Positions 197 to 15,244 of a stretch of 64,000 nt of DNA are shown here, in pieces. The DNA lies in the NCBI GenBank assembly GCA_036736205.1, contig DAINMX010000002.1, positions 6,001-70,000 of the forward strand. Direction: 5' to 3'. The translations under genes and the position numbers were made by a program. Every line of letters begins with the position of its first letter. Position 1 is the first letter of the stretch. The notes beneath the pieces were generated by a model, which saw only the letters and a list, made by a program, of their open reading frames with translations, had not been told where the DNA came from and searched no databases. This DNA is from Myxococcota bacterium. GTDB lineage: Bacteria; Myxococcota; XYA12-FULL-58-9.

Positions 197-2182
197 TCAG
201 ACCGACTCATCGTCTGTGTCTCCCAAGCTCTCTTGGCCACTCTTCTCCGCATCAACCGAAGAATCCTGAGAACCGAAATCGAGAATCTTCGAACTGCCAA
301 CGTACGCCTTCGTCTCGTAGGCGGTGATCTGACCAATGCGCCTGACAATCTGCGCCATTCTGTCCGTCTCCCGATAGATTACATCGACGGGCTTCCGGTT
401 CGCATCTCCCTCAGGGATGCGACGGCGCAACATTTCCGCATAACCGAGAATTGACGTCAGAGGCTGATTGAGCTCGTGAGCCGTGGCACCGGCGAGTTCC
501 ACAGCGACGACCTGCCGCTCAGTGTTCTTGAGCCGTCGTTGCACCTGACTGAGCTTCTCCTCCATCTTCAACAACTCACGCAGATCGGTAAAAATACCGA
601 CGGTGGCGATCTCTCGCTCTCCCTCGTAGATCACCGACGCTGTGAGATTCACCGGCACGAGGATCCCATGCTTGGACACCAAGTCTTTGCGGGTCATCTC
701 CAAACGCCCCGCACCACCAAATGCCTCCGAACGCAACCGGCGCATAACGTCGCGGGCTTCCCCGGGTGGATACAATCGCGCCACATTCATCTTGCCCACC
801 ACGTCGCGGGCCGAGTAACCGAGAAAATCTTCGGCAGCCCGATTGAACAGGATGATGCGACCATTGATATCAGCGGCGACAATTGCGTCAACGGAGCTCT
901 GAATAAGGTTCTCGAGAAACTCTTTGGTTTGACGCAACTCTGTTTCGATCTCTCGCAATTCCGTCACATCACGAAAACTCACGAGGACACCGTTTGGCTG
1001 TTCCAACGCTCGAATCGCCGCAGAAATGACAATCTCCTGCTCACCCTCAACGGGAACCAAGAGGTCGATATAACCGTACGAGTCACCGACCTGGTCCCCG
1101 CGAATCGCTCGACGTGCAAGAACGTGCGAATCTGCGTTCAACAGCTCGACAAACCGTTTGCCGCCGAGTTCCCCCACCTCGCACCGGAGGATAGAGCCCG
1201 CGGCCTCGTTGGCATAACGGATCACTCCATCATCGTCTGTGACGACGATGCCATCGTTGGCTTGGGCGAAAAAATTGGAGAACTGCTGAAGTCCGGCAAC
1301 GCGTTCATCGGCCTCTGCCTTCTTGCGACGCAACGCTCGATGTTCACTGAGCAACGTATCCTGCTCCAACGCTGCACCAATGGCGACCGAAGTAACCGCT
1401 GCGATGAGCTTTCCCATATGCATGAGCCGCTCTTCGACGCTTCCGAGTGGCTGACTGTCCCTCAGAAACAATGCGCCAACGACCTCGTCTTTGTGCAGCA
1501 GTGGAAACAGCACCGATGCCCGGGGCGTCTGTTTGGCATGTTCGAGCTTGCTGCGCACGCCCGATAGAAGAGTATCCCCGAGCACGTCGGTGATCACCAA
1601 TGGTTCGTGTGAGCCCATCACCGCTCGCAGTTCAGGATAGTCGTCGACGCGAATAACCAGGTTGTCGATCAAAGACTCCTCGTGCTCGGCCACGACAAAA
1701 GCGATTTCATCCCCGGGTTTGAAGAGCACAACGGATACCCGATCGATACTGAACAGCTCGGATAACCTAAGGACTGCAGTGCACAAGACCTCGCCGAGCT
1801 CCGGATGCGAATTGATCTCGGTGATCAGACTTACCAGACCATGGTGAATCTCTGATTGTGTCGCGTTGGCTTCGGCCAGCTCGAGGTCTCGGGACCAACG
1901 AGAAACGCAATGGTCGAGATGTGCTTCACCCATCGCGACAGCATCAAATCCGGCAGCCACACAATCGCTAACCCTCTTCTCATCGAGGGCGGGCAACCAC
2001 GCCATGAGTTGTACGTCGACATAACGAGCCCGTAGCCGCTCAACCAACGCGGCCGAGTGCTCGAACGGGACGGCGACGATGATCAGACGAGCGCCGACGG
2101 GAAGGGCGTCTTCATCATCGTATGCGCGTATCCCTCGGTGGATGATCGAACCAAGGGCAATGATTGCAGCGTCTCCCTTCAT
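197..2182 (-). CDS. Signal-transduction protein: receiver-like N-term, GAF, two PAS domains, HisKA dimerisation/phosphoacceptor domain; no HATPase_c catalytic domain
   Basis: 661-aa ORF. An H-box (ELAGATAHELNQPLTSILGYAEML) lies near the C-terminus, followed only by a ~70-aa acidic/Ser tail. GAF-like and PAS-like segments (DGIVVTDDDGVIRYAN..., VDAIVAADINGRIILFNRA...) are visible. The stop at 197 lies just upstream of the next gene's start at 162, so an ATPase domain cannot be hidden by a frameshift. Confidence 0.7.
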   Translation of the reverse strand: MKGDAAIIALGSIIHRGIRAYDDEDALPVGARLIIVAVPFEHSAALVERLRARYVDVQLMAWLPALDEKRVSDCVAAGFDAVAMGEAHLDHCVSRWSRDLELAEANATQSEIHHGLVSLITEINSHPELGEVLCTAVLRLSELFSIDRVSVVLFKPGDEIAFVVAEHEESLIDNLVIRVDDYPELRAVMGSHEPLVITDVLGDTLLSGVRSKLEHAKQTPRASVLFPLLHKDEVVGALFLRDSQPLGSVEERLMHMGKLIAAVTSVAIGAALEQDTLLSEHRALRRKKAEADERVAGLQQFSNFFAQANDGIVVTDDDGVIRYANEAAGSILRCEVGELGGKRFVELLNADSHVLARRAIRGDQVGDSYGYIDLLVPVEGEQEIVISAAIRALEQPNGVLVSFRDVTELREIETELRQTKEFLENLIQSSVDAIVAADINGRIILFNRAAEDFLGYSARDVVGKMNVARLYPPGEARDVMRRLRSEAFGGAGRLEMTRKDLVSKHGILVPVNLTASVIYEGEREIATVGIFTDLRELLKMEEKLSQVQRRLKNTERQVVAVELAGATAHELNQPLTSILGYAEMLRRRIPEGDANRKPVDVIYRETDRMAQIVRRIGQITAYETKAYVGSSKILDFGSQDSSVDAEKSGQESLGDTDDESV

Positions 2183-2946
2183 GGGTTCGTGTCCCCCTCG
2201 AAACCATACGCCCGCAAGACATTGGGACGGGAATCGAATCGACGGCTCCCTGCCCCGACACCTCGGAGCCTGGCATCACCGCAGAGATCGTCCCGGTAGC
2301 TGGTACAAATCTCTGCGATCACCGCTATGCCGGTCGGCGTAATCGTCTCACCCACCAGAGGTACGTCGACCAATGGCACGTTGGCCCGCGCGGCGATCTC
2401 CCGCACAGCTGGCACCGGACAATTTAACACGCCATGCGCCGTTGAGACCGTACCGCTTCCACTCGGCAGCGGCGCGCAACTCACCCGAGGCGTTCCAAGG
2501 CTGTGGAGCGCCACCGCTATCCCCAACACATCCAATATCGAGTCGAGTTGACCAACTTCGTGCAGGTGCACTTCGTGCGGTCCATCGGTGCCATGCACAG
2601 CCGCTTCAGCCTCGCCCAGGCGGACAAAGATTCGTCGTGCAAGTGCAAGGGCCGCCGGCGGCACGTCCGCGGTGGCTAGAATCTCAAACACATCGGCCAG
2701 ATGACGATGGTGTGGCTCAACAGAGCGAGGAATGGACCGTACGTGCAAAGCCGTTTCGCCATCCACCTCCACGGGCTGCACAATGAGCTCGAGGCCGTCT
2801 ATTTCGAGACTTTTGATCGCGTGCTGAACCACACTCTCCGCGCCGAGATCGCACAACGCACCCAACAACATATCCCCGGCCACTCCGCCCACTGGCTGAA
2901 AATGGAGACGCCTGAGGCGGGGTACACGACTTCTCATGGTCGCCAA
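2179..2946 (-). CDS. LarC N-terminal-domain (DUF111 / nickel-pincer cofactor nickel-insertase LarC1-like) protein, lacking the LarC C-terminal domain
   Basis: 255 aa. FQPVGGVAGDMLLGALCDLG...HHRHLADVFEIL...HLHEVGQLDSILDVLGIAVAL...GSGTVSTAHGVLNCPVPAV matches the LarC/DUF111 N-domain motifs (SGISGDM-LGAL-DLG, HH-H--H, HFHEVGA-DSIVDIVG, GSG-V-TAHG-LPVPAPA). Start and stop overlap the neighbouring genes by 4 and 13 nt. Confidence 0.55.
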   Translation of the reverse strand: MATMRSRVPRLRRLHFQPVGGVAGDMLLGALCDLGAESVVQHAIKSLEIDGLELIVQPVEVDGETALHVRSIPRSVEPHHRHLADVFEILATADVPPAALALARRIFVRLGEAEAAVHGTDGPHEVHLHEVGQLDSILDVLGIAVALHSLGTPRVSCAPLPSGSGTVSTAHGVLNCPVPAVREIAARANVPLVDVPLVGETITPTGIAVIAEICTSYRDDLCGDARLRGVGAGSRRFDSRPNVLRAYGFEGDTNP

Positions 2947-3533
2947 CCGCCCGCACCAGCCATTTGCGCGGCGGCCTGATTGTCGACGACAACAAGCAGG
3001 CGGCCCGCGAACCCAGCTGCAATATCGGCGAAATGGGTCGTCACCACAGTCGCGTCTCCGACACGCTTTTGCACGACGGTATGAAGCACCCCGTACTCAA
3101 AGTCGGGCGGGCTTGGTATGAGATCGCCACGAACGAGACGACCGAGCGCCCCAAGAAACGCACAAAACATGATATTGGCTGTCTCCAACAGCGCGCTCTC
3201 TTCGAGAGAACCTCTCACAATGGCGTCAACCGAACAGTGAGTCAGAGTCGAGGCAAGCTTGCATGCCGACGCTTCGTCGAAAACGGCAAGCAGGCAGCAG
3301 GGAATCTCCCCCTCGACACCCAGCCGTATGGCAATCCCTCGTCGCTGCAGATCTGCGAAGTCCGACAATGCGTCTGCCTCAACCACTTGTGGGACATCCG
3401 GAACAATGCGACCGCCGCCGAGCAGTTGTACCAACGAGGAAAGGGCACTACCGCTGCCAATGTTGACCAACTCGCAGAGAGCATCCCGGACAACTTCTCC
3501 ATTGGCGACTGCTGTGTGTTTCATGCTGCCCAC
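2934..3533 (-). CDS. cheC: CheC-family chemotaxis protein phosphatase (CheC/CheX/FliY fold)
   Basis: 199 aa. ELVNIGSGSALSSLVQLLG matches the CheC consensus E-(L/I)-G-N-I-G-x-G-x-A-A-x-x-L-S-x-L-L. It overlaps the cheA stop by 13 nt. Confidence 0.6.
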   Translation of the reverse strand: MGSMKHTAVANGEVVRDALCELVNIGSGSALSSLVQLLGGGRIVPDVPQVVEADALSDFADLQRRGIAIRLGVEGEIPCCLLAVFDEASACKLASTLTHCSVDAIVRGSLEESALLETANIMFCAFLGALGRLVRGDLIPSPPDFEYGVLHTVVQKRVGDATVVTTHFADIAAGFAGRLLVVVDNQAAAQMAGAGGWRP

Positions 3534-5446
3534 CGAGATCGCAACGCCTTGGGAATATCCAAAATCAGAATCGGTTCACCGTCCCCGAGAATGGTCGCTC
3601 CTGAGAACCAGTCCATTCGGTCAAGTGGATCGCCCAAGGGTTTGACAACAACCTCGTGATAACCGACCACCCTGTCAACTGCCACAGCGGCAAGGTCACG
3701 GCCGTCCTCCATGAGAACAGCTTGCTCTGGCGGGTGGGTTGCCCGCAATCCCAATAGCGTCCCCAAGTTGAAAATGGGTGCCAACGCATGCCTGAAACTC
3801 AAATAGGTGTTTCCACCGGCTTCCTGAATGGTATCGTCACCGGTCTCCCTGACGGCAACAACTTTGGCAACCGGCAACGCGAACAATCTGCCACAGGATT
3901 CAACCAAGAGAACATTGATGATTGCCACGGTGAGCGGCAATCGAAACAGGAAGCGTGTGCCAGACCCAAAGGTAGACTCTATGTCGAGTGTGCCGCCGAT
4001 GGCCTCAATCTTGGCGCGAACGGCATCCATGCCCACCCCACGTCCAGAGAGATCACTCACCTCCGCCTTCGTCGAGAAACTGGGGAGACAAATGAGAAAG
4101 TAGCAATCCCTTGAGCTCATAGCCTCTGCTTGCGCCTCACTGACGAGACCGAGTCGCACCGCACGTTCCCGCAGGACATCGGGATTGAGCCCACGCCCAT
4201 CGTCCTCGATGATGACAACAACAGTGTCCCGATCCCTCGTCGCAGATATGCGCACTTTCGCAATCGGAGGCTTGCCCGCCGCTTCGCGTTCCTGGGCACT
4301 TTCGATGCCGTGATCCAAAGCGTTTCGCAAGGTATGCACAAAGGGCTCATCGAGGTTCTCGAGAATCGCTCGATCCAGCTCAATCTCCGACCCTTCAATC
4401 TCGAGCTCCGCCTCCTTGCTGAGCGAATGCGCGAGATCACGAACCAGGCGGGGATATCTGTCGGTGAGATTACGCATGGGCGTCATCCGCACGGCCATGA
4501 CCTGACCGCGAATCTCACGAATGGTCTTGCCGAGCGCGTCCAAAGTGGTGTGCAGCTCTGGACGAGGCTGATCGGACAAAAGGCTTTCGAGTCGCTCTCG
4601 CAGAATGAAGAGCTCTCCGACGTTATCAATAAGCGTATCCAGTATGTCAGTGCGCACCCGAACGGTGGTGCTCCTCTTCGCTTCCGCGACGGGCTCCGTG
4701 GTCGCTGACTCTGGTGCGGGTTCTGCATTGGCCACCACGGTGCCCACGGTTACTGCAGCGACCTCGCCCACCTCAAGCACCGCGGCACGCAGCTCGTCGT
4801 CGGTCGCCATTGCCTCAACAGTGAAGCGTGCGTGACCACCCACTTGGCCGCCGCGAATCTCCTCCATGCTTGGCGTCGAATCGACAACGCGTCCGAGGGT
4901 CTCCAATCGACGGTGCACCATGAAAAGGCGAACCGCTGGCGTCTTGCACGCATCATCGATGAGGACGTCAATGGAAAGGTGATTCCTCGTCGCTCCTTCA
5001 GAAGGCACCCTCGCCACTGTCACGGTGGATTCAGAACCGGCCGCCGTTGACTTCTTCGCGAGCATTGGCACCTGGGCACCCGCATTGTTGAGCTCCGTGA
5101 GCAACTCACTGTGCGCGGGAATCGCCTGGTCATTGGCCACTGCCTCAACCTGTTGGGCAAGACCATCAACGCCGCGCAACAAAAGATCGACAATGGAGCG
5201 TTCGAAGGCGCGTTTCTCTGCGCGTCCGTGGGAAGCCACGTCCTCCATCTTGTGCGCGAGCGACGCAATCGGATCGAAACCCATGGATGCCGCCATTCCC
5301 TTAATCGAATGGAAGCGTCGGAAAATCTCTTCGATGATCGGTACGGGCTCACTCGTTGATTCGATCTGAACGAGCAACCTCGAAAGGTCAGACAAATGCT
5401 CACGGCTCTCCTCGATGAAGAGCGCCTTGTATTTCTCCATGTCCAT
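3521..5446 (-). CDS. cheA: Chemotaxis histidine kinase CheA (Hpt/P1, dimerisation, HATPase, C-terminal CheW-like P5)
   Basis: HPt motif FRRFHSIKGMAASMGF; ATPase boxes HTLRNALDHGIE, IEDDGRGL, SGRGVGMDAV; C-terminal CheW-like segment. Start placed at MDMEKYKALF (5446) because the ORF's 5' extension would overlap cheY. Confidence 0.9.
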   Translation of the reverse strand: MDMEKYKALFIEESREHLSDLSRLLVQIESTSEPVPIIEEIFRRFHSIKGMAASMGFDPIASLAHKMEDVASHGRAEKRAFERSIVDLLLRGVDGLAQQVEAVANDQAIPAHSELLTELNNAGAQVPMLAKKSTAAGSESTVTVARVPSEGATRNHLSIDVLIDDACKTPAVRLFMVHRRLETLGRVVDSTPSMEEIRGGQVGGHARFTVEAMATDDELRAAVLEVGEVAAVTVGTVVANAEPAPESATTEPVAEAKRSTTVRVRTDILDTLIDNVGELFILRERLESLLSDQPRPELHTTLDALGKTIREIRGQVMAVRMTPMRNLTDRYPRLVRDLAHSLSKEAELEIEGSEIELDRAILENLDEPFVHTLRNALDHGIESAQEREAAGKPPIAKVRISATRDRDTVVVIIEDDGRGLNPDVLRERAVRLGLVSEAQAEAMSSRDCYFLICLPSFSTKAEVSDLSGRGVGMDAVRAKIEAIGGTLDIESTFGSGTRFLFRLPLTVAIINVLLVESCGRLFALPVAKVVAVRETGDDTIQEAGGNTYLSFRHALAPIFNLGTLLGLRATHPPEQAVLMEDGRDLAAVAVDRVVGYHEVVVKPLGDPLDRMDWFSGATILGDGEPILILDIPKALRSRWAA

Positions 5447-5459
5447 CGGAGGCTGAACC

Positions 5460-5843
5460 TCAGGTGGAGCCGCGGGCCCCCAGAACCTTGAGAACCACCC
5501 GTTTGACGTCATCGGGTTTGAATGGCTTGACGATAAAGTCCGCTGCGCCAGCCTCAATAGCTTCCATGACCAGCGATTCTTGACCGAGCGCGCTGCACAT
5601 GATCACCACCGCGTCTTTGTCCAACTCGACGATCTCCTTGGTGGCCTCGATACCACTCTTGAACGGCATGACGATGTCCATGGTGGTCAGGTCGGGTTTC
5701 AGCTCTCGGTACTTCTCGACCGCCTCGACGCCGTTTGCCGCTTGACCTACCACCTCGAACTCATCACCTGCGAATATGTCGATAATCATGTTGCGCATGA
5801 AGATGGCGTCGTCAACGACTAGAACTCGCGTCTTGCTCATCAA
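5460..5843 (-). CDS. cheY: CheY-like single-domain response regulator
   Basis: 127 aa. VLVVDDAIFMRNMI...DLTTMDIVMPFKSGIEATKEI...VIMCSA...DFIVKPF is a typical receiver domain with the phosphoacceptor Asp and the T/K residues. Confidence 0.9.
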   Translation of the reverse strand: MMSKTRVLVVDDAIFMRNMIIDIFAGDEFEVVGQAANGVEAVEKYRELKPDLTTMDIVMPFKSGIEATKEIVELDKDAVVIMCSALGQESLVMEAIEAGAADFIVKPFKPDDVKRVVLKVLGARGST

Positions 5844-6367
5844 TGGACTCCTTGGCGCACCTGTTGGCCAGCGCCAAATTCACGGATCAGTCTGTCGAGC
5901 AAGTGCTCAACATGAATGATATTAATCAACCGCTGGCTGTGCTGCAAAACCCATTTTACACATGGGCCGGTCGACACATCCGCACTGCTCAATTCCCCAG
6001 ACGGGAGAATACTGTGGACTCGGCTTACGTACAATCCAACATTCCCCTTGGCTAACTGCCCCTGCCGCAACAACAGCACACGGGTATCTGGGCCTGGCAT
6101 CGCCGGCACATTGTTGACACCCAATATAGGGGCGGGATTCACCACGGTCACTATCCTGCCATGAAAGTTCATAATTCCCAAGACAACTGTGGGTGCCAAA
6201 GGCACCGGAGAAATAGTCCCAGGTTCAGCTACTTGGAGCAGTTGGGCGACCTCGATGCCGAACACCCCGCGCCGTCCATCCAAAACAGGAGGGTCCCTAT
6301 GCCCGACAGAAGGGCCCAGTTCAAACACGAGGACGGGTCCCCAGCTCTTCTGCTTCTCTGGGCTCAT
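5840..6367 (-). CDS. cheW: CheW coupling protein
   Basis: 175 aa with CheW-like fold motifs ([52 protein letters not shown]). ATGA overlaps with both neighbours. Confidence 0.85.
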
Positions 6368-7701
6368 TGGCCGTCGCGGCCCGGCGAACGCTCAGCGGCG
6401 CCCAGGCGGAAACGGGTGACCACAGCTTCGAGCTCGTGGGATAAGTTGGTGAGCTCGACAGCGCTCGACGCCATGGCCTGCATCGAAGCCGACTGTTTGT
6501 CGATCGCCTGAGACACTTGCAGAGTGGTCGTCGCATTGGAGACTGCCACCGCCGAGATGTTCTCGATGGCCTTGACCATTTCACCGGCACCCTCGAGCTG
6601 CTCACGGGTCGCCCGGGTGATCTCGCTCACCACGTCCGCGCCCTTCTGCGCTGTGATTGAGATGTTCTCCAGCGACTGTATGATCGTATTCATGTCTTCG
6701 CGGCCTTCGGCGAGTTCCTTTGTCGACTCGCTCATTGCAACCACCGCGGAGACCGATTCGCTAAGATTCTCGTGGATGAGCGCGGAAATCTGATCGGCGC
6801 TCTTGGCGCTGTTCTCGGCGAGCTTACGAATCTCGTCGGCAACCACGGCAAAACCCCGACCATACTCACCGGCCCGGGCTGCCTCGATGGCGGCATTGAG
6901 TGCGAGGAGGTTCGTCTGTTGCGAAAGCTTGGTAATCACCTCGACGATGTTACCGATCTCCTTTGACTTCTCGCCGAAACGAACGACGCGTGTCCCTGTG
7001 GCCTCAACCTTCTCGAAGACCATGCGCAACTTGTCGACCGCGAGCTTGCCCACCTGGCTGCCGGATTGCGCCGCGGCGGCGGTCTCTCCCGACGCCACCG
7101 CCGCGTCCTCCGCAGAGCGGGCGGTACTCTCGATCCCAGCCGCAATCTGGGAAATAAGTTTCGATGCTTTCGCAACCAGTTCCGCTTGGAGCTCCGCTCC
7201 ATGCCCAATTTTATCGATGGAAATGGTGACTTCTTCGGTGGAGGCGTTTACCCCTTCTGCGGTGCCAGACAGACCCTTGGCACTTTCGGCCACCGCCCGT
7301 GATGTCCGCTGTATGTGAGCCACCAACTCGCGAAGATTCTCGAGCATGTAGTTGATCGAATTGGCGAGATTGTCGACCTCCTCGGGCGCGGATTTCGGCC
7401 GTTGCAAACGTGCATGCTGCGACAGGTCACCACGGGACACGCGGCTCGCGAACTGGGCGAGGTTACGGATCTCACGGGAGAGGGGACCTGCAAGATAACC
7501 GCCCCCAACTACGCCGAGAAGCAGTGCTCCACAGCCAGCGCCAACCCAGGTTGCCCACCGACTGTCGGTCAACGCTTCAGCGCCGAGTGTCACCACTGCA
7601 CTGGCCATGGAGATACCCACGAAGCCGAGTGCAAGTTTAAAACGGAGAAGTCGAACCACCGGGCAATACTGTGGCAAAAAGATCCCTAGGTCAAACCCCA
7701 A
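6364..7701 (-). CDS. Methyl-accepting chemotaxis protein (two TM, HAMP, MCP signalling domain)
   Basis: 445 aa. The N-terminus has two hydrophobic segments flanking a short loop, followed by a HAMP-like linker. The highly conserved MCP hairpin [31 protein letters not shown] is present. Confidence 0.85.
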
Positions 7702-7826: not shown

Positions 7827-9689
7827 ATGATGACGAGCAAACAATTGATTGCCTTTGTGGTCTTGGTTCTGTGCGCAGCGTGCGAGCCGGAGAACCTGTC
7901 GAGACAACAGGCCAAAATCGCCCTGACGCCACGCCCTACGGCGACGCAGACGGCGATGAACGATCCGGCGGGCATCGATTGTGGCCAGGTAACAGTCCAC
8001 GGTTTGGACATCGCGACCTTCCGCATCGATAACCTCGGCAGCGCAACGCTCGAAATTGAATCCACCAGGATAGCGTCACAGTCGGGAGGCACTTTTCGGG
8101 TGCAATCCGTGAGCGATCGGGTGACGGCGTACCACACAGACGACGAGGCTGGGGAGTTGGTGATCAGCCTCACTCCCAATGCGGATCAGGAGCCCGCAGA
8201 GGCGACGATCGAGCTCTTGACCAACAGCGGCGAAAACGGCGACGAGACGGCTCACGTCATCGTTCGGGCAGTCGGTCTCTACATCGGCGATCCCAACATT
8301 GAGGTCTGCTACGATGGCACTTGTTACCCAGGCGCCGAAGATTGCAGTGATCGTGGTGATGGAAAGAATATCTGCCAGCTGCCAACTCTCGATTGGGGCA
8401 ACGTCTCCCTCGGCAAAACCTCGACCCGCGAGATTCGGCTGCGCAATGTCCCCAGAGCGGGTACGTGTCTACCGCCGCCGGGAGCCGCGGAGTGCACCCG
8501 AGTTTGCCGATTGACGTTCGACCGCGACCCGAGCCATCAGAACCTCGGATTTGGCTTTGTCCCAGACAACACCGGGTTCGAGTTCCGGGGCAACATCGAA
8601 TTGCCACACGCCCTCGACGTGGCAAACCCGCAATGCGGTCTGGTCAACGAGGAACCGCTGTTGATTCGCTTCAACTCGGGAAACGAAGAAGGTATCGCGA
8701 CCAGCACCCTGGTGATCGAAAACAACGACCCTGATGCCCCACTCATCGAGATCCCGTTGTCAGCCCATGCACGACAGGCCCCAGTCGCGGTGGCACAAAT
8801 TCGTGCCTGCAGCGGCGAAACGGTCCCAAACTGCACTCCCGACGTCACCGACATCCGCCCCCTCGACCGCGTCTATCTCACGAGTGTTGCAAGCTTTGAC
8901 ACCAGCACCCCGCCGCGGGATCTCATCGCCTGGGAGTGGACTGTCGAGGAGTCCCCGCAAGGCGCGAACCCCGATGACTTCGCTCTGCAAGGCACCGATA
9001 CCGAGGTCATGTCCATGTGGCTGCCCCTCGCGGGCCGCTACGTCGCCAAGCTACGAGTCACCAATGACCTCGGCATCAAGAGCGGAATCACCCCCACTGC
9101 CCTGGTCGAGTTCTACGCCATCCCCAACAGCCGGGTGCACATTCAGTTGGTGTGGGATCACCCAACAAACGATTTGGACCTGCACGTGACCTCGACCGCA
9201 ATGGGTGACTTGGTCTGCGAGGCACCCAATGACTGCTTCTGGGGCAACTGCAAACGACAGTGTCTCGAGCCAGACTCAGAGTGTCGGGAACCACCGGTCT
9301 GGTTCGCGTCCGCCAATGCTCTCGAGGGCCCAAACCCGCGCCTCGACATCGACGACACCAACGGCCTTGGCCCTGAAAACACCAACATCGACGAACCATC
9401 TCCCGGCAAATTCCGCATCTATGTCCACTATTACACGCTCATCGATCGCAGCACCGATCCTACCCAGGCGATCATCCGCATCTACATCGACGGACAGGCG
9501 GCCGCAGAATACCGACGGGTGCTGCGGCCGGATGATCTCTGGCGGGTGGCTGAAGTTGAATGGACCATGGACATCGACGGCTCCGAGCAGGCACATATCA
9601 ACATGGCCACGAGCGATGGCCTCGGCCAGGGAGCGCTAAAGAAGATGTACAACTGCTCCCATCCGTTTGACTTTGGTGAGGTGTTTTGA
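7827..9689 (+). CDS. Secreted (signal peptide / possible lipoprotein) cysteine-containing protein, paralogue A of a tandem pair; ASH/DUF1573-like beta-sandwich N-region, conserved ~200-aa C-terminal module
   Basis: The signal peptide MMTSKQLIAFVVLVLCAAC is visible. The C-terminal module IHIQLVWDHPTNDLDLHV...DIDDTNGLGPENTNIDEP..GKFRIYVHYY is shared almost motif-for-motif with the next gene. Confidence 0.7.
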   Translation: MMTSKQLIAFVVLVLCAACEPENLSRQQAKIALTPRPTATQTAMNDPAGIDCGQVTVHGLDIATFRIDNLGSATLEIESTRIASQSGGTFRVQSVSDRVTAYHTDDEAGELVISLTPNADQEPAEATIELLTNSGENGDETAHVIVRAVGLYIGDPNIEVCYDGTCYPGAEDCSDRGDGKNICQLPTLDWGNVSLGKTSTREIRLRNVPRAGTCLPPPGAAECTRVCRLTFDRDPSHQNLGFGFVPDNTGFEFRGNIELPHALDVANPQCGLVNEEPLLIRFNSGNEEGIATSTLVIENNDPDAPLIEIPLSAHARQAPVAVAQIRACSGETVPNCTPDVTDIRPLDRVYLTSVASFDTSTPPRDLIAWEWTVEESPQGANPDDFALQGTDTEVMSMWLPLAGRYVAKLRVTNDLGIKSGITPTALVEFYAIPNSRVHIQLVWDHPTNDLDLHVTSTAMGDLVCEAPNDCFWGNCKRQCLEPDSECREPPVWFASANALEGPNPRLDIDDTNGLGPENTNIDEPSPGKFRIYVHYYTLIDRSTDPTQAIIRIYIDGQAAAEYRRVLRPDDLWRVAEVEWTMDIDGSEQAHINMATSDGLGQGALKKMYNCSHPFDFGEVF

Positions 9690-9727
9690 TCGCAGGCACT
9701 CCGCCGGCTTCATTGCACCCCAAGGTA

Positions 9728-9738
9728 CCGTCCTATAG
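9728..9738 (+). promoter_or_regulatory. CCGTCCTATAG element (candidate -10 region) 57 nt upstream of the paralogue-B start; identical 11-mer recurs upstream of ftsE
   Basis: Exact 11-nt identity between 9728-9738 and 15448-15458, both shortly upstream of plus-strand gene starts. Promoter function is inferred only. Confidence 0.25.
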
Positions 9739-9794
9739 AGGTGTTTGATTCTGTGGGGTTACCTGCAACCATGACAACAGCGTCGGAGGTATGG

Positions 9795-11705
9795 ATGCGG
9801 CGTCTCCTTAGATTGACAACGGCACTGGCGGTTTTGCTCACGATCGGTTGCAGCGACGACACCTTCACAACCAGCACCGCTCGATTGGACATGCTCGCGT
9901 ACACCCCGGGCCAAGGTTACGGCTGGGTCGACGATGACCAAAGAACCATCGACCTCGGTGATGTCCCCGTCCACGCCACCAAGTGGGCGATCTGGAAACT
10001 CGAAAATCCCAGCCCCATCCCTCTGTTGGTTCGTGAGGTCACCTTCAAGAACGGCGTTGGCCGACGTTGGGGTCCCGCCCGCGCCGTGGTGCTCGAACAG
10101 GCACCCGACCCATCCCGGCCCCTAAACGACAACGCCCGCGCTGATGGCAAAGGCGGAGCTGAACCACCGTTTGCCGTGCCCGCATACGCCGGCGTCGCAC
10201 AAGGACAACCAACCTACCTGCTCGGCGTCGAATACTCCCCGATTGAGCTTGGTGCCCATTCGGTCACTGCGGTCATTCACACCGATGCCGAAAACGCCGG
10301 CCTCGATGGCACCATCGACGCGCTCATTCGCGCCAACGCCGTGTACACGGGAGAACCCGACATCGAAGTAGAATACGCGGGGTTTCGTGGTCCCAATCCA
10401 AGCACCGATTGCACCACGGATGGCATCTGCACCATTCCGGCGAACCAAGGCGTCGATTTTGGCAACATTGGCCTGGGTGGGAGCAGCTCGATCCGATTGC
10501 TGCTGCGCAACCAGTCGGAGTGCACACCCTACGAGGGCACCGACCCCTGCTCTCTGTGCAAACTGACCGTCGCAGCCGACCCTACCCGCCAGAACATCGG
10601 TTTCGGTTTCAAGCCCGGCACCAACGACGCGGAGGTGTTCAAGTTCGCCGGCTCGACCGCGGTGCCCTTTGAAATCCGCCAGCGCAACGTCGCCTGCGGC
10701 GAGAGCGGTGAGCAACGCATCGCCCTGGAGTTCAACGCTCCTACACATGAGGAGGAGTACAGCGCGATCGTCGTCCTCGAGTCCACCGACCCAAATGAGC
10801 CACTCATTGAAATCCCCATTCGTGGCGCAGCCCGCAACGCGCCAGTCGCCATCGCCAAGTTCCGCGAACGTGACCCCACAAACCCGAGTGCACCATTCAC
10901 CGATCCCAGTGGCATCGAGCCGTTGGAGTGGGTCTACTTCGATGGGCGCGACAGTTGGGATCCCGTCAATCCGAACGATCCCGGAAGAATCGCGGGGTAT
11001 CAGTGGGAAATCCTCGAGTACCCTCCCGGCGCGAACCCCGATGACTTCGACCTCCAAGGGATCTATTCGAGCGTCTTTGCCTTCTGGTTGCCGCTCGCGG
11101 GTCACTACGAGGCCCGGTTGCGGGTGTGGAATGTCGATGGCATTGAGAGCGGCGACACCCCCGCAGCGCGTAAGGAGTTCGACGTCATTCCCGGAGACGC
11201 CATACACGTGCAGTTGGTTTGGGATAACCCCACCAACGACCAGGATTTGCACCTGACCTACCTCACCCAAGACGATCGCGTGTGCAACAAGCCGTGGGAT
11301 TGCTACTACGGCAACAGAAAGCCCTTGTGGTTCTCTAGCCCTGCCGGCGAAGGCCCCAATCCTTCATTGGATATCGATGACACCCAGGGCCTCGGGCCCG
11401 AGAACATCAACATCGATGACCCCGAGACTGGGGTCTATCGTGTCTATGTCCACTACTTCGGCGATTTCTCCGGTGGTGCCGACACGCCGACCCGGAACAC
11501 TGTACGAATCTACCTCAACGGTCGCCAAGAGGCCGAGTATCGACGCACCCTCGATAACGAAAAAGACATTTGGGCGGTTGCAGACATCACCTGGCTACCC
11601 AATGGCACCGGTTACGCCACCCCGTATCCACCGGATGCCCAAGGGCAAATCGGCGCAACCGACGTGATGACAAGTTGCACATCGCCCGGATACACATTTC
11701 CCTGA
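9795..11705 (+). CDS. Secreted lipoprotein-like protein, paralogue B of the tandem pair
   Basis: The ORF track starts at a GTG at 9741. The preferred start is the ATG at 9795 (MRRLLRLTTALAVLLTIGCSDD, a lipoprotein-type signal) with GGAGG 5 nt upstream. It shares VYTGEPDIEVEY..., PLIEIPIRGAARNAPVAIA, IHVQLVWDNPTNDQDLHL and DIDDTQGLGPENINIDDPETGVYRVYVHYF with the preceding gene. Confidence 0.7.
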   Translation: MRRLLRLTTALAVLLTIGCSDDTFTTSTARLDMLAYTPGQGYGWVDDDQRTIDLGDVPVHATKWAIWKLENPSPIPLLVREVTFKNGVGRRWGPARAVVLEQAPDPSRPLNDNARADGKGGAEPPFAVPAYAGVAQGQPTYLLGVEYSPIELGAHSVTAVIHTDAENAGLDGTIDALIRANAVYTGEPDIEVEYAGFRGPNPSTDCTTDGICTIPANQGVDFGNIGLGGSSSIRLLLRNQSECTPYEGTDPCSLCKLTVAADPTRQNIGFGFKPGTNDAEVFKFAGSTAVPFEIRQRNVACGESGEQRIALEFNAPTHEEEYSAIVVLESTDPNEPLIEIPIRGAARNAPVAIAKFRERDPTNPSAPFTDPSGIEPLEWVYFDGRDSWDPVNPNDPGRIAGYQWEILEYPPGANPDDFDLQGIYSSVFAFWLPLAGHYEARLRVWNVDGIESGDTPAARKEFDVIPGDAIHVQLVWDNPTNDQDLHLTYLTQDDRVCNKPWDCYYGNRKPLWFSSPAGEGPNPSLDIDDTQGLGPENINIDDPETGVYRVYVHYFGDFSGGADTPTRNTVRIYLNGRQEAEYRRTLDNEKDIWAVADITWLPNGTGYATPYPPDAQGQIGATDVMTSCTSPGYTFP

Positions 11706-11725
11706 CCAACGATCGTGAGGACCCT

Positions 11726-14700
11726 ATGGCAACTTTGACGCGTCTTTCTGTCGTGGCCGCACTGGCCCTGACATCCATCGCCTGTGAGCGCACTTCCAAA
11801 CCCCGAGACGAATGCGAAGTCAACGAGGACTGCAATGGCCAGTATTGCTTGCAGGGAGTGTGCGTCGAGTGCTCGGAGGACAAGCAGTGCGATAAGCATC
11901 GCATATGCGCCACCAACACCTGTGAGCTCCTCGGCGCTGAGCGCGAGAATCAGGCCCAGAACGCCCACGGCAACTGGCGCGGCACCCCTGGGCAACCAGG
12001 CTACGATCCCATCGACACGTGCACCATAAATGAGGACTGTTCCTTTGGCGAGCTCTGCAACCCCTTCACCGCCGGTTGTATCCGCGCCGTCGATTTTACC
12101 GAGACCTGCGACGACGGTACATGCTCAGAGACCGGCCCCAATGGCGAGACCCTCGCTTGCGAGCCACAGAGCGACACCTGTTATCCAGCCCCACGCTGCA
12201 CCACCGACCGGAACTGCGCCGGCTACGATGAGTTCGTCTGCGACCCTGGCAGCGGGGTGTGCCAGTTCCAACAGCGAGAGTGTACACCGCCAACGGCGAG
12301 CGAAACCCAACCATGTCCCTTCTCGCCGCGGCTAACCGACGAGTGCACGGTCCCTGGGCTTTTTTGCTCGCCCTTGGGCCGCTGCGTGCAGTGCACCTGC
12401 AACCTCGATTGTGATGCCAATGGTGGCTTGCCTGTTTGTTACGCTCCCACCGGCCGTTGTGTACGTGAGGACTTCTGCACACGCGCGGGCGAGTGTACCC
12501 CAGACAAATGTGACGGCCCGACCTGTTCCTGTGACCGACGCAACCAGATGTGCCAACCCTACTGCGATCAGGCGGACGACTGCGGCGACAACCAATACTG
12601 CGATACACTGGACAATGTCTGTCGACCCGAGGTTGAGCGCCCTTGCCTTACGGACTCCCTCGAGGGATCACCCAACAACGACCAGAGTAGCAGCGCCGCC
12701 GACTTGCCACTGCCCGCCATGGGTGAAAGCGTCGAGATCCCCGCCGATAGCGACCACGTCCTTTCCCTGTGCGACACCGATACCTACACCGATCACGACG
12801 ACTGGTATGCCTTGGATCTTTCGGCCGGTGACGCCATCCGTATCATCGGTAGCAGCAACGATGGCCTCATAGCCGTCATGACCGCCTTTGCCGCCGATGG
12901 ATTCACCGTCCTCGACACCGGTGCCATCAATCCTATCGTTGGAGATCTATTGCACATCACCGCCGGATTTGACGCGGTCTATTGGGTGCACATCGCCTCT
13001 GGCTACGATGTCGTCGCCGGCGTGCAGTCCACAGGCACGTATCGTTTGAGTGTGACCTTAACCCGCGGCCAGAGCTGCAGCGACGCCTTCGAGGTTAACC
13101 TTGGCCGCAACGACACCCCTGCCGTGGCCACCGTCCTCAACGACGAAACCGCAGGCATCCCCGCCGACTGCACGGGCACTCTCGGTGCTCAACAAATGAT
13201 TGAATGCAAGGACGGCGTTAACATGTGTCTCGGCGACGTCGACTACTATCTCATCAACGCGAGCGCCGGTGCCACCGTGTCCGCAACCATTGACAGTTTT
13301 AGCAACAACCTCGATCTGCACTTGTATGGTCCATTCGCTCACGGCGAGGTTCCATCCTTGTCACCACAAGCCGACTATTCCACCGGACCCGGCGTAAGCA
13401 GCGAAGCCGTCATGGCAGCGACCCGCGCCGCGGGCTCATTTCTGCTCCGGGTGAGCCGCACGAGCGGCGAGGCGAGTGTTTACAGCCTCGCCGTCGAAGT
13501 ACTGGCCGGACCCGTTTGCAGCGAAGACCGCTTCGATGACGAGTCGGGTGAGTCGGGCAGCACCGGCGACCCCGCCTCCATGTCGCCATTCATCGAAGAC
13601 CCCGCTAGCCTAAACGACACCCTTACCACCGCGACGTTCATTGATGTCGACCCGAGTTCGGCTGCAACACTCACGGTCGCCACGGATGAAACCACGCCTC
13701 TCACACTGTGCGGCGGGGACGTCGACTGGTTCCGACTCGGTGCCCAGGGGACCGACCGCCTCGTCAATGTCGATGCCGGCCTGCGAATCACCGGACACCT
13801 GACGGTGTCGAGCCTCGAGGAGGGCGACAAAGTGTTCGTGAGCGTCGGCAGCTCGAGTGAAGCGATGCAGCTCGACGAAGACGACTCCACGGCGTTCACC
13901 ATCTCGGTGACAAATGGTGGCCCCCTGTACCTGCGTGTCTACGGTGCACCGACAAACATCGGCGCGGTGGCCTACACCATTGAGATTGGGACGATCGCGC
14001 CCGAGTGCGCCCCCGACAACCGCGGCGATACCACAACATTGAGTAATGACGACCCCAACGATGCCTATGCGCTCATCGCCAGTGATGGTTGGCCCACGAT
14101 CTTGGGCGACCCTGCTCACGAAGAGACCGCCTTGTCGTTGTGTACCCGCCTCGACGGCACATCGTTGGTCCGCGACATCGATTGGTACACCATCGGTGTG
14201 CCAGCGGGCTCCGAGGTCGCCGCGACCGTGCACTACGATGCCAGCGAATCGGAAGCCAACCTGACGTTGTTCGCATCCTCCGTCCTCAACGCCACAAATC
14301 TCGACTCGCCGAACGAGATCCCCAACACCGGCCTGCTTGTCGAGAGCGTCGTCAACGGGCTCGGCACGGAGCGCGCCCGAGTCAACGCCACGGGGACCAT
14401 CTACATTCGCGTCGGCAACGAAAGCGGTTGGCCCATCTCCCATTACAGCCTCGAAGTGCGCCTGCTGCCCCTCGCTTGCACCGAGGACGAGCACGAACCC
14501 AACCAGTCCTGGGATCCAGGCGTTGCCATGCCGTTGTCGATGGCGAGTGTAGAGCCGCCTATCGAGACCGGCACCCTCGACGAGCTCAGCATCTGCACGG
14601 GTGCCGACCGGGATTGGTACACCGTGCCACTCGGCATTGGCGACGAGATCACCGCGACGTTGTTCTCCCATCCCACAGAGGGAGAGATCGATTTCTATCT

Positions 14701-15244
14701 GTACCGTCCCGGCCCCGCGGGCGTACAAGATCTGAACACCTTCATTACCCACAAGGCGGTCACATCGGAGGTCACAACCCTCAACCACAAAGTCGCCGCG
14801 AGCGGCCCCGTGGGCGACTATCTCCTGCAGGTCCGCCCCGAGGGATCCGGCCCCTTTGCCAACCGTTACGCCCTCGAAACCCGTGTCGCCCGCGAGTGCA
14901 TCGATGACAGCTTTGAGGATTTCTCCCTCCTCGTGCTCGGTAACCACTACCCGGAGCTGCAATTGTGTGGGGACGAGGATTGGTTCACCTTCGTCCCAAA
15001 CGGCGCCGGGGATGTCACCGTCTGCGCCCTCTTCTCCCACGCCGCGGGCAACATCGATCTGTTTGTCTACGACGAACTCGACCCGCCATCAATTATCCGT
15101 GGTGCGCAGAGCCTGACCGATGATGAGCGCGCCTCTTTCCAGGCTGTGGCAGACGTGAGCTACTACGTCCGCGTGTTCACGCCGACCCCGGTCAACACCG
15201 CCTACGAGCTGCATGTGCTGTGGGGCGACGTCCCCTGCCCATAA
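11726..15244 (+). CDS. Large secreted protein (1173 aa): N-terminal Cys-rich modules followed by about six pre-peptidase C-terminal (PPC)-type domains
   Basis: Start set at the ATG at 11726 (MATLTRLSVVAALALTSIAC) with GAGG 7 nt upstream; the ORF-track 5' extension overlaps the previous gene. The Cys-rich region resembles CNGQYCLQGVCVECSEDKQCDKHRIC. Repeated PPC signatures are DHDDWYALDLSAGD, GDVDYYLINASAG...LDLHLYG, GGDVDWFRLGAQG, RDIDWYTIGVPAG, ADRDWYTVPLGIGD...IDFYLY and GDEDWFTFVPNGAG...IDLFVYD. Confidence 0.75.
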   Translation: MATLTRLSVVAALALTSIACERTSKPRDECEVNEDCNGQYCLQGVCVECSEDKQCDKHRICATNTCELLGAERENQAQNAHGNWRGTPGQPGYDPIDTCTINEDCSFGELCNPFTAGCIRAVDFTETCDDGTCSETGPNGETLACEPQSDTCYPAPRCTTDRNCAGYDEFVCDPGSGVCQFQQRECTPPTASETQPCPFSPRLTDECTVPGLFCSPLGRCVQCTCNLDCDANGGLPVCYAPTGRCVREDFCTRAGECTPDKCDGPTCSCDRRNQMCQPYCDQADDCGDNQYCDTLDNVCRPEVERPCLTDSLEGSPNNDQSSSAADLPLPAMGESVEIPADSDHVLSLCDTDTYTDHDDWYALDLSAGDAIRIIGSSNDGLIAVMTAFAADGFTVLDTGAINPIVGDLLHITAGFDAVYWVHIASGYDVVAGVQSTGTYRLSVTLTRGQSCSDAFEVNLGRNDTPAVATVLNDETAGIPADCTGTLGAQQMIECKDGVNMCLGDVDYYLINASAGATVSATIDSFSNNLDLHLYGPFAHGEVPSLSPQADYSTGPGVSSEAVMAATRAAGSFLLRVSRTSGEASVYSLAVEVLAGPVCSEDRFDDESGESGSTGDPASMSPFIEDPASLNDTLTTATFIDVDPSSAATLTVATDETTPLTLCGGDVDWFRLGAQGTDRLVNVDAGLRITGHLTVSSLEEGDKVFVSVGSSSEAMQLDEDDSTAFTISVTNGGPLYLRVYGAPTNIGAVAYTIEIGTIAPECAPDNRGDTTTLSNDDPNDAYALIASDGWPTILGDPAHEETALSLCTRLDGTSLVRDIDWYTIGVPAGSEVAATVHYDASESEANLTLFASSVLNATNLDSPNEIPNTGLLVESVVNGLGTERARVNATGTIYIRVGNESGWPISHYSLEVRLLPLACTEDEHEPNQSWDPGVAMPLSMASVEPPIETGTLDELSICTGADRDWYTVPLGIGDEITATLFSHPTEGEIDFYLYRPGPAGVQDLNTFITHKAVTSEVTTLNHKVAASGPVGDYLLQVRPEGSGPFANRYALETRVARECIDDSFEDFSLLVLGNHYPELQLCGDEDWFTFVPNGAGDVTVCALFSHAAGNIDLFVYDELDPPSIIRGAQSLTDDERASFQAVADVSYYVRVFTPTPVNTAYELHVLWGDVPCP

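Follow-up and report, generated by a model that had tools for sequence, protein, structure and literature searches.

The 64,000-nucleotide stretch of Myxococcota DNA analysed here (contig DAINMX010000002.1, hereafter the window) carries, at positions 197–2182 of the minus strand, a gene for a 661-residue sensor protein that has the dimerization and histidine phosphotransfer (DHp, or HisKA) domain of a class I histidine kinase. This sensor belongs to the histidine-kinase superfamily and has lost the catalytic ATP-binding domain (HATPase_c). Because no catalytic domain is present, its domain content predicts that the protein cannot autophosphorylate. As judged from its homologues, the loss is ancient, conserved throughout the phylum and under selection. 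We propose, tentatively and at somewhat less than an even chance, that the sensor is a signal-gated node of histidine phosphotransfer that is fed by a partner, in this bacterium by CheA through CheY, and that serves an unlinked regulator.

A phospho-acceptor domain without a catalytic domain

An initial annotation, made from the sequence alone, had described a protein with GAF and two PAS modules, a clear H-box and no catalytic domain, and had proposed profile searches and structure prediction as checks. The GAF and both PAS modules were recovered by Pfam and in an AlphaFold2 model, and Pfam matched HisKA at residues 562–616 (E 2e-12). The H-box is indeed clear: it reads AHELNQPLT and contains His569 (codon 476–478), the predicted phospho-acceptor. 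No HATPase_c-type family was found among the 10 Pfam families returned at E ≤ 1. Alignments to the NCBIfam histidine-kinase models (AtoS, FixL, PhoR, WalK, NtrB and others) ended at about residue 627, with nothing beyond the DHp domain, and in a sequence search of the PDB the sensor aligned to FixL-type PAS–DHp proteins up to residue 620. The AlphaFold2 model, built from an alignment of 45 family sequences (mean predicted local distance difference test score, pLDDT, 85), places in order an N-terminal domain (residues 4–84), a long helix, GAF, PAS1, PAS2, the two DHp helices (535–588 and 596–620) and a disordered segment (625–661, pLDDT <50). No alpha/beta ATPase fold follows the DHp domain in this model. 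A hidden or divergent HATPase_c in the tail was thus ruled out by Pfam at E ≤ 1, by NCBIfam, by phmmer against the PDB and by AlphaFold2, and none of these sensitive searches detected one in the last 120 residues, the region that the initial annotation had singled out. Of the features that define a class I kinase, the DHp domain and H-box are present and the HATPase_c domain with its N, G1, F and G2 boxes is absent.

The features of the gene, all on the minus strand, are as follows.

197–2182, minus: sensor gene, HisKA without a catalytic domain, 661 residues, stop codon at 197–199 (open reading frame (ORF) listing, Pfam, AlphaFold2)
1853–2182, minus: predicted pseudo-receiver, residues 1–110, a short alpha/beta domain (4–84) followed by a long helix (AlphaFold2 secondary structure, hhalign)
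1382–1798, minus: GAF, residues 129–267 (Pfam GAF and GAF_3, model)
950–1270, minus: PAS1, residues 305–411 (Pfam PAS_4, model)
575–922, minus: PAS2, residues 421–536 (Pfam PAS, conservation profile)
323–580, minus: DHp/HisKA hairpin, residues 535–620, with H-box AHELNQPLT (Pfam HisKA 562–616, AlphaFold2 helices)
275–328, minus: conserved post-DHp motif ITAYETKAYVGSSKILDF, residues 619–636 (family alignment)
200–274, minus: variable acidic Ser/Asp-rich tail, residues 637–661 (homologue comparison; pLDDT <40)

The chain ends 92 residues after His569 and about 45 residues past the end of the DHp domain, and the figure of about 70 residues past the H-box given originally needs correction. The acidic Ser/Asp-rich tail was described correctly, and it varies between homologues. 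A fold search with the full model returned generic GAF/PAS arrays only (phytochromes, PpsR, FixL and DosP, with NifL-type proteins among the top matches). Antisense to the sensor gene lies a 363-residue ORF (window 476–1567, plus strand), which is probably no gene but a shadow ORF of the GC-rich sequence.

The same end point is found throughout the family

The 111 best database homologues of the sensor (31–100% identical, mostly 530–690 residues) all lack PF02518, and the first homologue with a catalytic domain appears at rank 112. A profile of the C-terminal 127 residues retrieved 322 cluster representatives (50% identity) at E ≤ 1e-30, and in about 140 of the 150 best of these the chain ends within a few residues of the end of the profile. 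In 28 of 28 family loci inspected, from Sorangium, Corallococcus, Archangiaceae, Kofleriaceae, Sandaracinaceae and Polyangiaceae genomes, the protein ends 68–128 residues past the His. A search that started from a Myxococcus-type member gave 633 clusters at E ≤ 1e-60; PF02518 was absent from all 120 of the Myxococcaceae and Archangiaceae homologues listed among them, which include proteins of cultured Myxococcus xanthus (WP_237078938.1), Pyxidicoccus, Corallococcus, Hyalangium, Archangium, Cystobacter and Melittangium. Databases label members of the family ‘sensor histidine kinase’ or ‘PAS domain S-box protein’. Since homologues across Myxococcota share the end point, HisKA without HATPase_c is here a stable and conserved state.

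An identical copy of the window gene is present on an independent metagenome contig (L085), which runs past the edge of the window; the scan of metagenome loci yielded 12 loci. Downstream of the sensor gene, this contig encodes a complete LolA-like protein (Pfam LolA_like, E 6e-61), a 529-residue protein without a Pfam match and, on the other strand, ETF proteins, and HATPase_c was not found in these downstream genes. That misassembly, a frameshift or recent decay has cut short a normal kinase gene is scarcely credible. Only the unusual architecture speaks for such an origin; against it stand the identical independent contig, the hundreds of homologues from isolates and metagenome-assembled genomes that share the stop position, and the LolA-like gene of the window, which begins with its own ribosome-binding site (GAGGAG) at an ATG at 163, 33 nt beyond the sensor stop (not 35 nt, as first counted). 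The independent contig and the family-wide conservation together rule out frameshift or assembly truncation, and the initial annotation was right to dismiss the former. Nothing observed points to programmed frameshifting or trans-splicing as the source of a catalytic domain.

An invariant histidine and a conserved post-DHp motif

All 45 sequences of the family alignment carry His569, and A568, H569, E570, L571, N572, Q573, P574, L575 and T576 are invariant or nearly so in sequences that are 31–69% identical overall. PAS2 is the most conserved sensor module in the family conservation profile, and that of the window protein is 44% identical to the PAS domain of a complete kinase (P0112). Pseudokinases such as PsmA have lost the phosphorylatable His (PMC12963549); the family retains it, and His569 is therefore likely to be used. 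The pattern is the opposite of that in DivL and PsmA, where the His is lost and the kinase fold kept: here the His is invariant and the catalytic fold is absent. The phosphatase motif of HisKA proteins, H-E/D-x-x-N/T, is not present, since the family reads HELNQ with an invariant Q at +4, whereas neighbouring complete kinases read HELNN.

Beyond DHp helix 2 the family shares the consensus ITxYETKxYVGxxxILDL, in which I619, T620, Y622, T624, Y627, V628, G629 and I633 are near-invariant. AlphaFold2 predicts the motif to be disordered in the monomer, and because of this it looks like a docking peptide; in a model of a natural fusion to a kinase (P0122, described below) the region forms a low-confidence beta-hairpin (pLDDT <50). 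We also considered that the motif is a remnant of the linker between DHp and catalytic domains together with the first strand of the latter. This idea came from a by-eye analogy with FixL and with kinases encoded downstream of family genes, and was rejected, as the profile–profile alignment stops at residue 616 and lends it no support.

A degenerate receiver at the N-terminus

The N-terminal domain of the sensor has no Pfam match. In Polyangia members of the family the corresponding position is occupied by a canonical receiver (PF00072) with its catalytic DD, D, T and K residues. In the window protein and its clade the domain is shortened and all five residues are missing or substituted. Alignment by hhalign of the sensor N-terminus with the receivers of distant family members gave a weak match (E 0.0017). 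On sequence criteria the domain is a pseudo-receiver, degenerate and not phosphorylatable. The ‘receiver-like N-terminus’ of the initial annotation was overstated, in that the domain is degenerate and every catalytic residue has gone.

The sensor gene closes a chemosensory operon

In the window the sensor is the seventh and last gene of a tightly packed minus-strand operon, MCP–CheW–CheY–CheA–CheC-like–LarC-like–sensor (MCP, methyl-accepting chemotaxis protein), confirming the earlier observation that CheA is co-operonic with it. The other genes of the operon, and the gene that follows, are listed below.

6364–7701, minus: MCP with two membrane-spanning segments, HAMP and signalling domain (Pfam HAMP, MCPsignal)
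5840–6367, minus: CheW (Pfam CheW)
5460–5843, minus: CheY, single-domain receiver with D/D/D/S/K intact (Pfam Response_reg)
3521–5557, minus: CheA with Hpt, P2, dimerization, HATPase_c and CheW domains (Pfam)
2934–3533, minus: CheC/CheX-like putative phosphatase of phosphorylated CheY (CheY-P), 199 residues (Pfam CheC, E 4.6e-9; NCBIfam CheC)
2179–2946, minus: LarC-like, N-terminal part only, 255 residues, matching Ni_insertion positions 1–233 of 375 (Pfam, NCBIfam)
1–163, minus: start of a LolA-like (TP_0789/DUF1329-type) gene, with signal peptide (phmmer to a TP_0789-like protein)

Neighbouring genes overlap at most junctions between the MCP and the sensor, and the LarC-like stop and the sensor start share an ATGA. 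A scan for promoters and terminators gave matches at chance level only, with no terminator-like signal above chance, and neither CheB nor CheR is encoded within the operon. The MCP, by eye from its translation, has a periplasmic loop of only about 10 residues and no ligand-binding domain. The longest CheA ORF opens with a TTG at 5557 and shares 98 nt with CheY. Because homologues align only from residue 38 onward, translation probably begins at the ATG at 5446 (MDMEKYK...).

Beside the operon lie three large ORFs (620, 654 and 1224 residues; window 7827–15244, plus strand), the first two of which look paralogous by translation. Large genes (621–1162 residues) with weak or faint PPC, PKD-like or Ig-like matches occupy the same relative position in loci L002 and L003, and this synteny may be conserved. 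The only complete histidine kinase in the 64 kb, and the only kinase apart from CheA, is an 852-residue HisKA–HATPase_c–REC–HD_5 hybrid 46 kb away (window 47979–50537, minus strand), which is not of the type found downstream of family genes elsewhere.

Chemosensory genes and LarC in relatives

The same operon, with none, one or two genes separating CheA from the sensor, is also found at L002, L008, L086, L097, L098, L099 and L100, the CheA stop overlapping the sensor start in L097 and L008; at L018, CheA and a full-length LarC lie upstream. LarC-like genes precede the family gene in 10 loci, the window among them, spread over deep branches, often with overlapping stop and start. The gene directly upstream of the sensor is a truncated LarC in L086, L087, L088, L098 and L099, and a full-length one in L013, L016, L018 and L020. 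Because the N-terminal-only form is conserved in the clade of the window protein (250–269 residues), it is not a recent pseudogene; the part that it lacks is, we presume, the C-terminal CTP-binding domain. The possibility that the N-terminal 110 residues of the sensor are the missing C-terminal half of LarC was rejected, as they gave no Ni_insertion match and align with the receiver of distant homologues.

Complete kinases encoded downstream of, or fused to, the family protein

In 13 loci from Polyangia and Myxococcia, a complete (GAF-)PAS-HisKA-HATPase_c kinase is encoded directly downstream of the family gene. These kinases carry their own H-box and N, G1, F and G2 boxes, and in L001, L007, L012 and L101 the stop of the family gene overlaps the start of the kinase gene. 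Moreover, family protein and kinase are joined in frame in at least nine proteins (P0121, P0122, P0134, P0164, P0168, P0184, P0231, P0233 and P0239), which are laid out as DHp1, the post-DHp motif, a linker or PAS domain, DHp2 and a single C-terminal HATPase_c. Both H-boxes are intact in the fusions, AHELNQPLTS being followed by HE[LI]NNPLT. To our knowledge, such ‘tandem DHp’ kinases have not been described. The DHp domain of the sensor is related to that of the downstream kinases (hhalign probability 98%), the H-boxes reading HELNQPLTS in the family and HELNNPLTS in the kinases. Overall, among the 27 loci whose flanking sequence is long enough, about 21 have a kinase gene, either class I or cheA, beside the family gene. 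In the clade of the window protein, where CheA (class II) is the only kinase present nearby, none of the downstream type was found up to about 10 kb from the gene, and there is none in the window.

The suggestion in the initial annotation that the protein works with another kinase fits these comparative data (13 downstream kinases, nine fusions and CheA in the operon), and its reading as a whole is partly supported. The exchange of a downstream or fused class I kinase for an upstream CheA suggests a phospho-acceptor module that can be connected, itself unchanged in kind, to different kinase inputs.

At L101 (Corallococcus coralloides CP034669.1, 8837635–8859593), the family gene and an overlapping GAF-PAS kinase gene adjoin a gene for an MshEN-domain protein and a MotA/ExbB–ExbD–ExbD cluster, and a MASE1–PAS hybrid kinase is encoded about 8 kb from the family gene. 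This neighbourhood may resemble the aglRQS/espC region of M. xanthus.

A proposed partner-fed phosphotransfer node and its alternatives

In the phosphotransfer node that we tentatively favour, a DHp dimer in the form of a four-helix bundle would be gated by the GAF and PAS domains, and His569 would take its phosphoryl group from a partner instead of from ATP. In the window, phosphorylated CheA would charge the CheY of the operon, and back-transfer from CheY would phosphorylate His569, giving a His–Asp–His relay of the kind seen in transfer from Spo0F to Spo0B and from RedD to RedE. The phosphoryl group would then be passed to, or drained by, a response regulator encoded elsewhere. RedE of M. 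xanthus, likewise from Myxococcota, is a histidine kinase-like protein that does not autophosphorylate; its His24 is charged by the phosphorylated receiver protein RedD (RedD-P), and it acts on another regulator (PMC2755868).

Several observations weigh against this proposal. Linkage to a che cluster is not universal among relatives: at L003 and L004 (50% identical) the sensor gene is accompanied by thiL-like and LolA-like genes but not by che genes, upstream of it at L088 is the truncated LarC alone, and some relatives that have lost the che genes keep an intact H-box. The surroundings of the sensor gene include no gene for a response regulator with an output domain, and a relay step on an internal Asp is impossible in the window protein because its N-terminal receiver is degenerate. 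The DHp surface that follows the His (TSxxGYAExL) is almost identical in che-linked and kinase-linked clades, and this, together with the tail motif, suggests one common partner in both contexts, encoded elsewhere; such a partner would be neither the CheY of the operon nor the downstream kinase. Finally, the natural fusions to a full kinase favour direct phosphorylation, in trans or in cis, by a catalytic domain, at least in the lineages that have them.

The last point leads to a split kinase, in which a separate class I kinase of the downstream or fused type, encoded elsewhere in the genome, uses its catalytic domain to phosphorylate His569 directly, through a DHp heterodimer or transient docking, perhaps at the post-DHp motif, while the che linkage reflects co-regulation only. 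We regard this as somewhat unlikely for the window protein. The 13 downstream kinases with their frequent stop/start overlaps, the nine fusions, the relatedness of the two DHp domains and the conserved acidic residue after the His all speak for it, and a near-invariant DHp surface and tail motif in both contexts would fit one conserved partner; EnvZ, in addition, works in split form in vitro, and split kinases have been predicted to occur widely (PMC3591291). However, the H-box of the downstream kinases is intact, which means that they do not require an acceptor from outside; in the clade of the window protein no kinase of this type is encoded within about 10 kb; the one other kinase in the window is the distant hybrid described above; and the models show the motif as disordered or as a hairpin of low confidence.

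The two remaining alternatives appear less probable still. Without a catalytic domain, a DHp domain can keep only phosphatase and transferase activities, and the sensor might be a bifunctional kinase locked in phosphatase mode, whose DHp domain would never retain a phosphoryl group for any length of time but would catalyse signal-dependent dephosphorylation of CheY-P, CheY being the sole receiver protein of the operon, or of another regulator. RedE is a phosphatase of phosphorylated RedF (RedF-P) (PMC2755868). We consider this quite improbable, as the invariant HELNQ departs from the H-E/D-x-x-N/T motif (described in PMC3591291, PMC12963549 and the text of a bioRxiv preprint) and the operon already encodes a CheC-like phosphatase. 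Moreover, the phosphatase activity of RedE survived the H24A substitution in vitro (PMC2755868), and for this reason the absolute conservation of the His calls for more than phosphatase action. A regulator or scaffold independent of phosphorylation, comparable to NifL, DivL or a dominant-negative subunit, would use its DHp domain only to dimerize or to bind a partner, for instance a kinase, CheA or CheY, and would relay the signals of its GAF and PAS domains through stoichiometric binding. Histidine kinase-like proteins that signal by binding are known, among them DivL and PsmA (PMC12963549), PpsR and NifL-type PAS arrays are among the top matches of the fold search, and an MCP without a sensing domain could receive its input from a cytoplasmic sensor. 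Nevertheless, an invariant His and H-box across the phylum are not expected of such a protein, PsmA-type pseudokinases having lost the His, and we hold this explanation to be very improbable.

Relation to known systems

The sensor resembles FixL/DctB/NtrB-type (HPK4-like) kinases in its PAS–DHp arrangement and in the H-box AHELNQPL. Its nearest solved relatives are FixL-type PAS–DHp constructs (8a7f, 4gcz), and its dual PAS superposes on the PAS–PAS of FixL with a TM score of 0.75–0.79. These kinases, however, run on into HATPase_c, where the sensor stops. Spo0B and ChpT use the His of a DHp-like hairpin to shuttle phosphate between receiver domains without ATP; they retain a degenerate alpha/beta domain that resembles a catalytic domain, and lack sensor domains. 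The sensor shares with them the His-bearing helical hairpin; no Spo0B-type model was among the 10 Pfam families returned at E ≤ 1, and no domain follows its DHp. RedE differs from the sensor in that it retains HATPase_c, has no sensor domains and is only 242 residues long, and we found no specific sequence relationship between the two.

HisKA without HATPase_c is already a recognized class, and the bare observation is therefore not new in kind. Such proteins made up 1556 of 42417 HisKA proteins in SMART (3.66%) and were proposed to be split kinases (Amin, Porter and Soyer 2013; PMC3591291), are catalogued as ‘incomplete HK’ (histidine kinase) in the P2CS database (PMC2716373) and are also treated in a 2026 bioRxiv preprint; the HisKA and HATPase parts of EnvZ function as separate polypeptides (PMC3591291). 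The sensor shares with this class the presence of HisKA and the absence of HATPase_c. The class is a bioinformatic bin, whereas the sensor belongs to a single orthologous group that spans a phylum and has its own tail motif and a context next to, or fused with, kinases. The HE/DxxN/T motif that flags putative bifunctional split kinases is not found in it.

Among chemosensory clusters, the kinase functions of CheA3 and CheA4 of Rhodobacter sphaeroides are divided between proteins (PMC3591291); these are fragments of class II CheA and, unlike the sensor, not HisKA proteins. CheS3 of Rhodospirillum centenum is a PAS sensor kinase of a che cluster wired to CheA3 (PMC3868531). The sensor shares with CheS3 its location in a che operon with CheA, but has neither the working receiver domains nor the catalytic domain of CheS3. 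Literature searches, with guessed M. xanthus locus tags and for HisKA-only proteins, in an incomplete library, found no characterization of the family. Nor did this incomplete literature describe its tail motif, its systematic pairing or fusion with class I kinases, or the placement at the end of a che operon of a sensor with a degenerate receiver.

Implications

The proteins of this family are annotated as sensor histidine kinases, yet they cannot be kinases on their own. A wider reading of the data, which as a whole we consider unlikely, is that Myxococcota carry a conserved two-part, sometimes fused, ‘tandem DHp’ unit, which in the clade of the window protein has been rewired onto a chemosensory pathway. 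In such a unit the partner kinase may charge the DHp sensor that lacks a catalytic domain as a second, separately gated phospho-site, and ITxYETKxYVGxxxILDL may be the docking element for that partner. The output of the MCP–CheA–CheY pathway may then be a phosphorylated HisKA-type DHp domain and not a motor or a transcription factor, and the LarC-like protein, so tightly linked, might couple the sensor to nickel or to the product of LarC.

HisKA-only proteins account for about 3.7% of HisKA proteins (PMC3591291), and this large and easily recognized orthologous group offers a system in which to study their function in tractable myxobacteria such as M. xanthus and Corallococcus. If CheA does feed the sensor through CheY, this would be a new kind of output from a chemosensory pathway.

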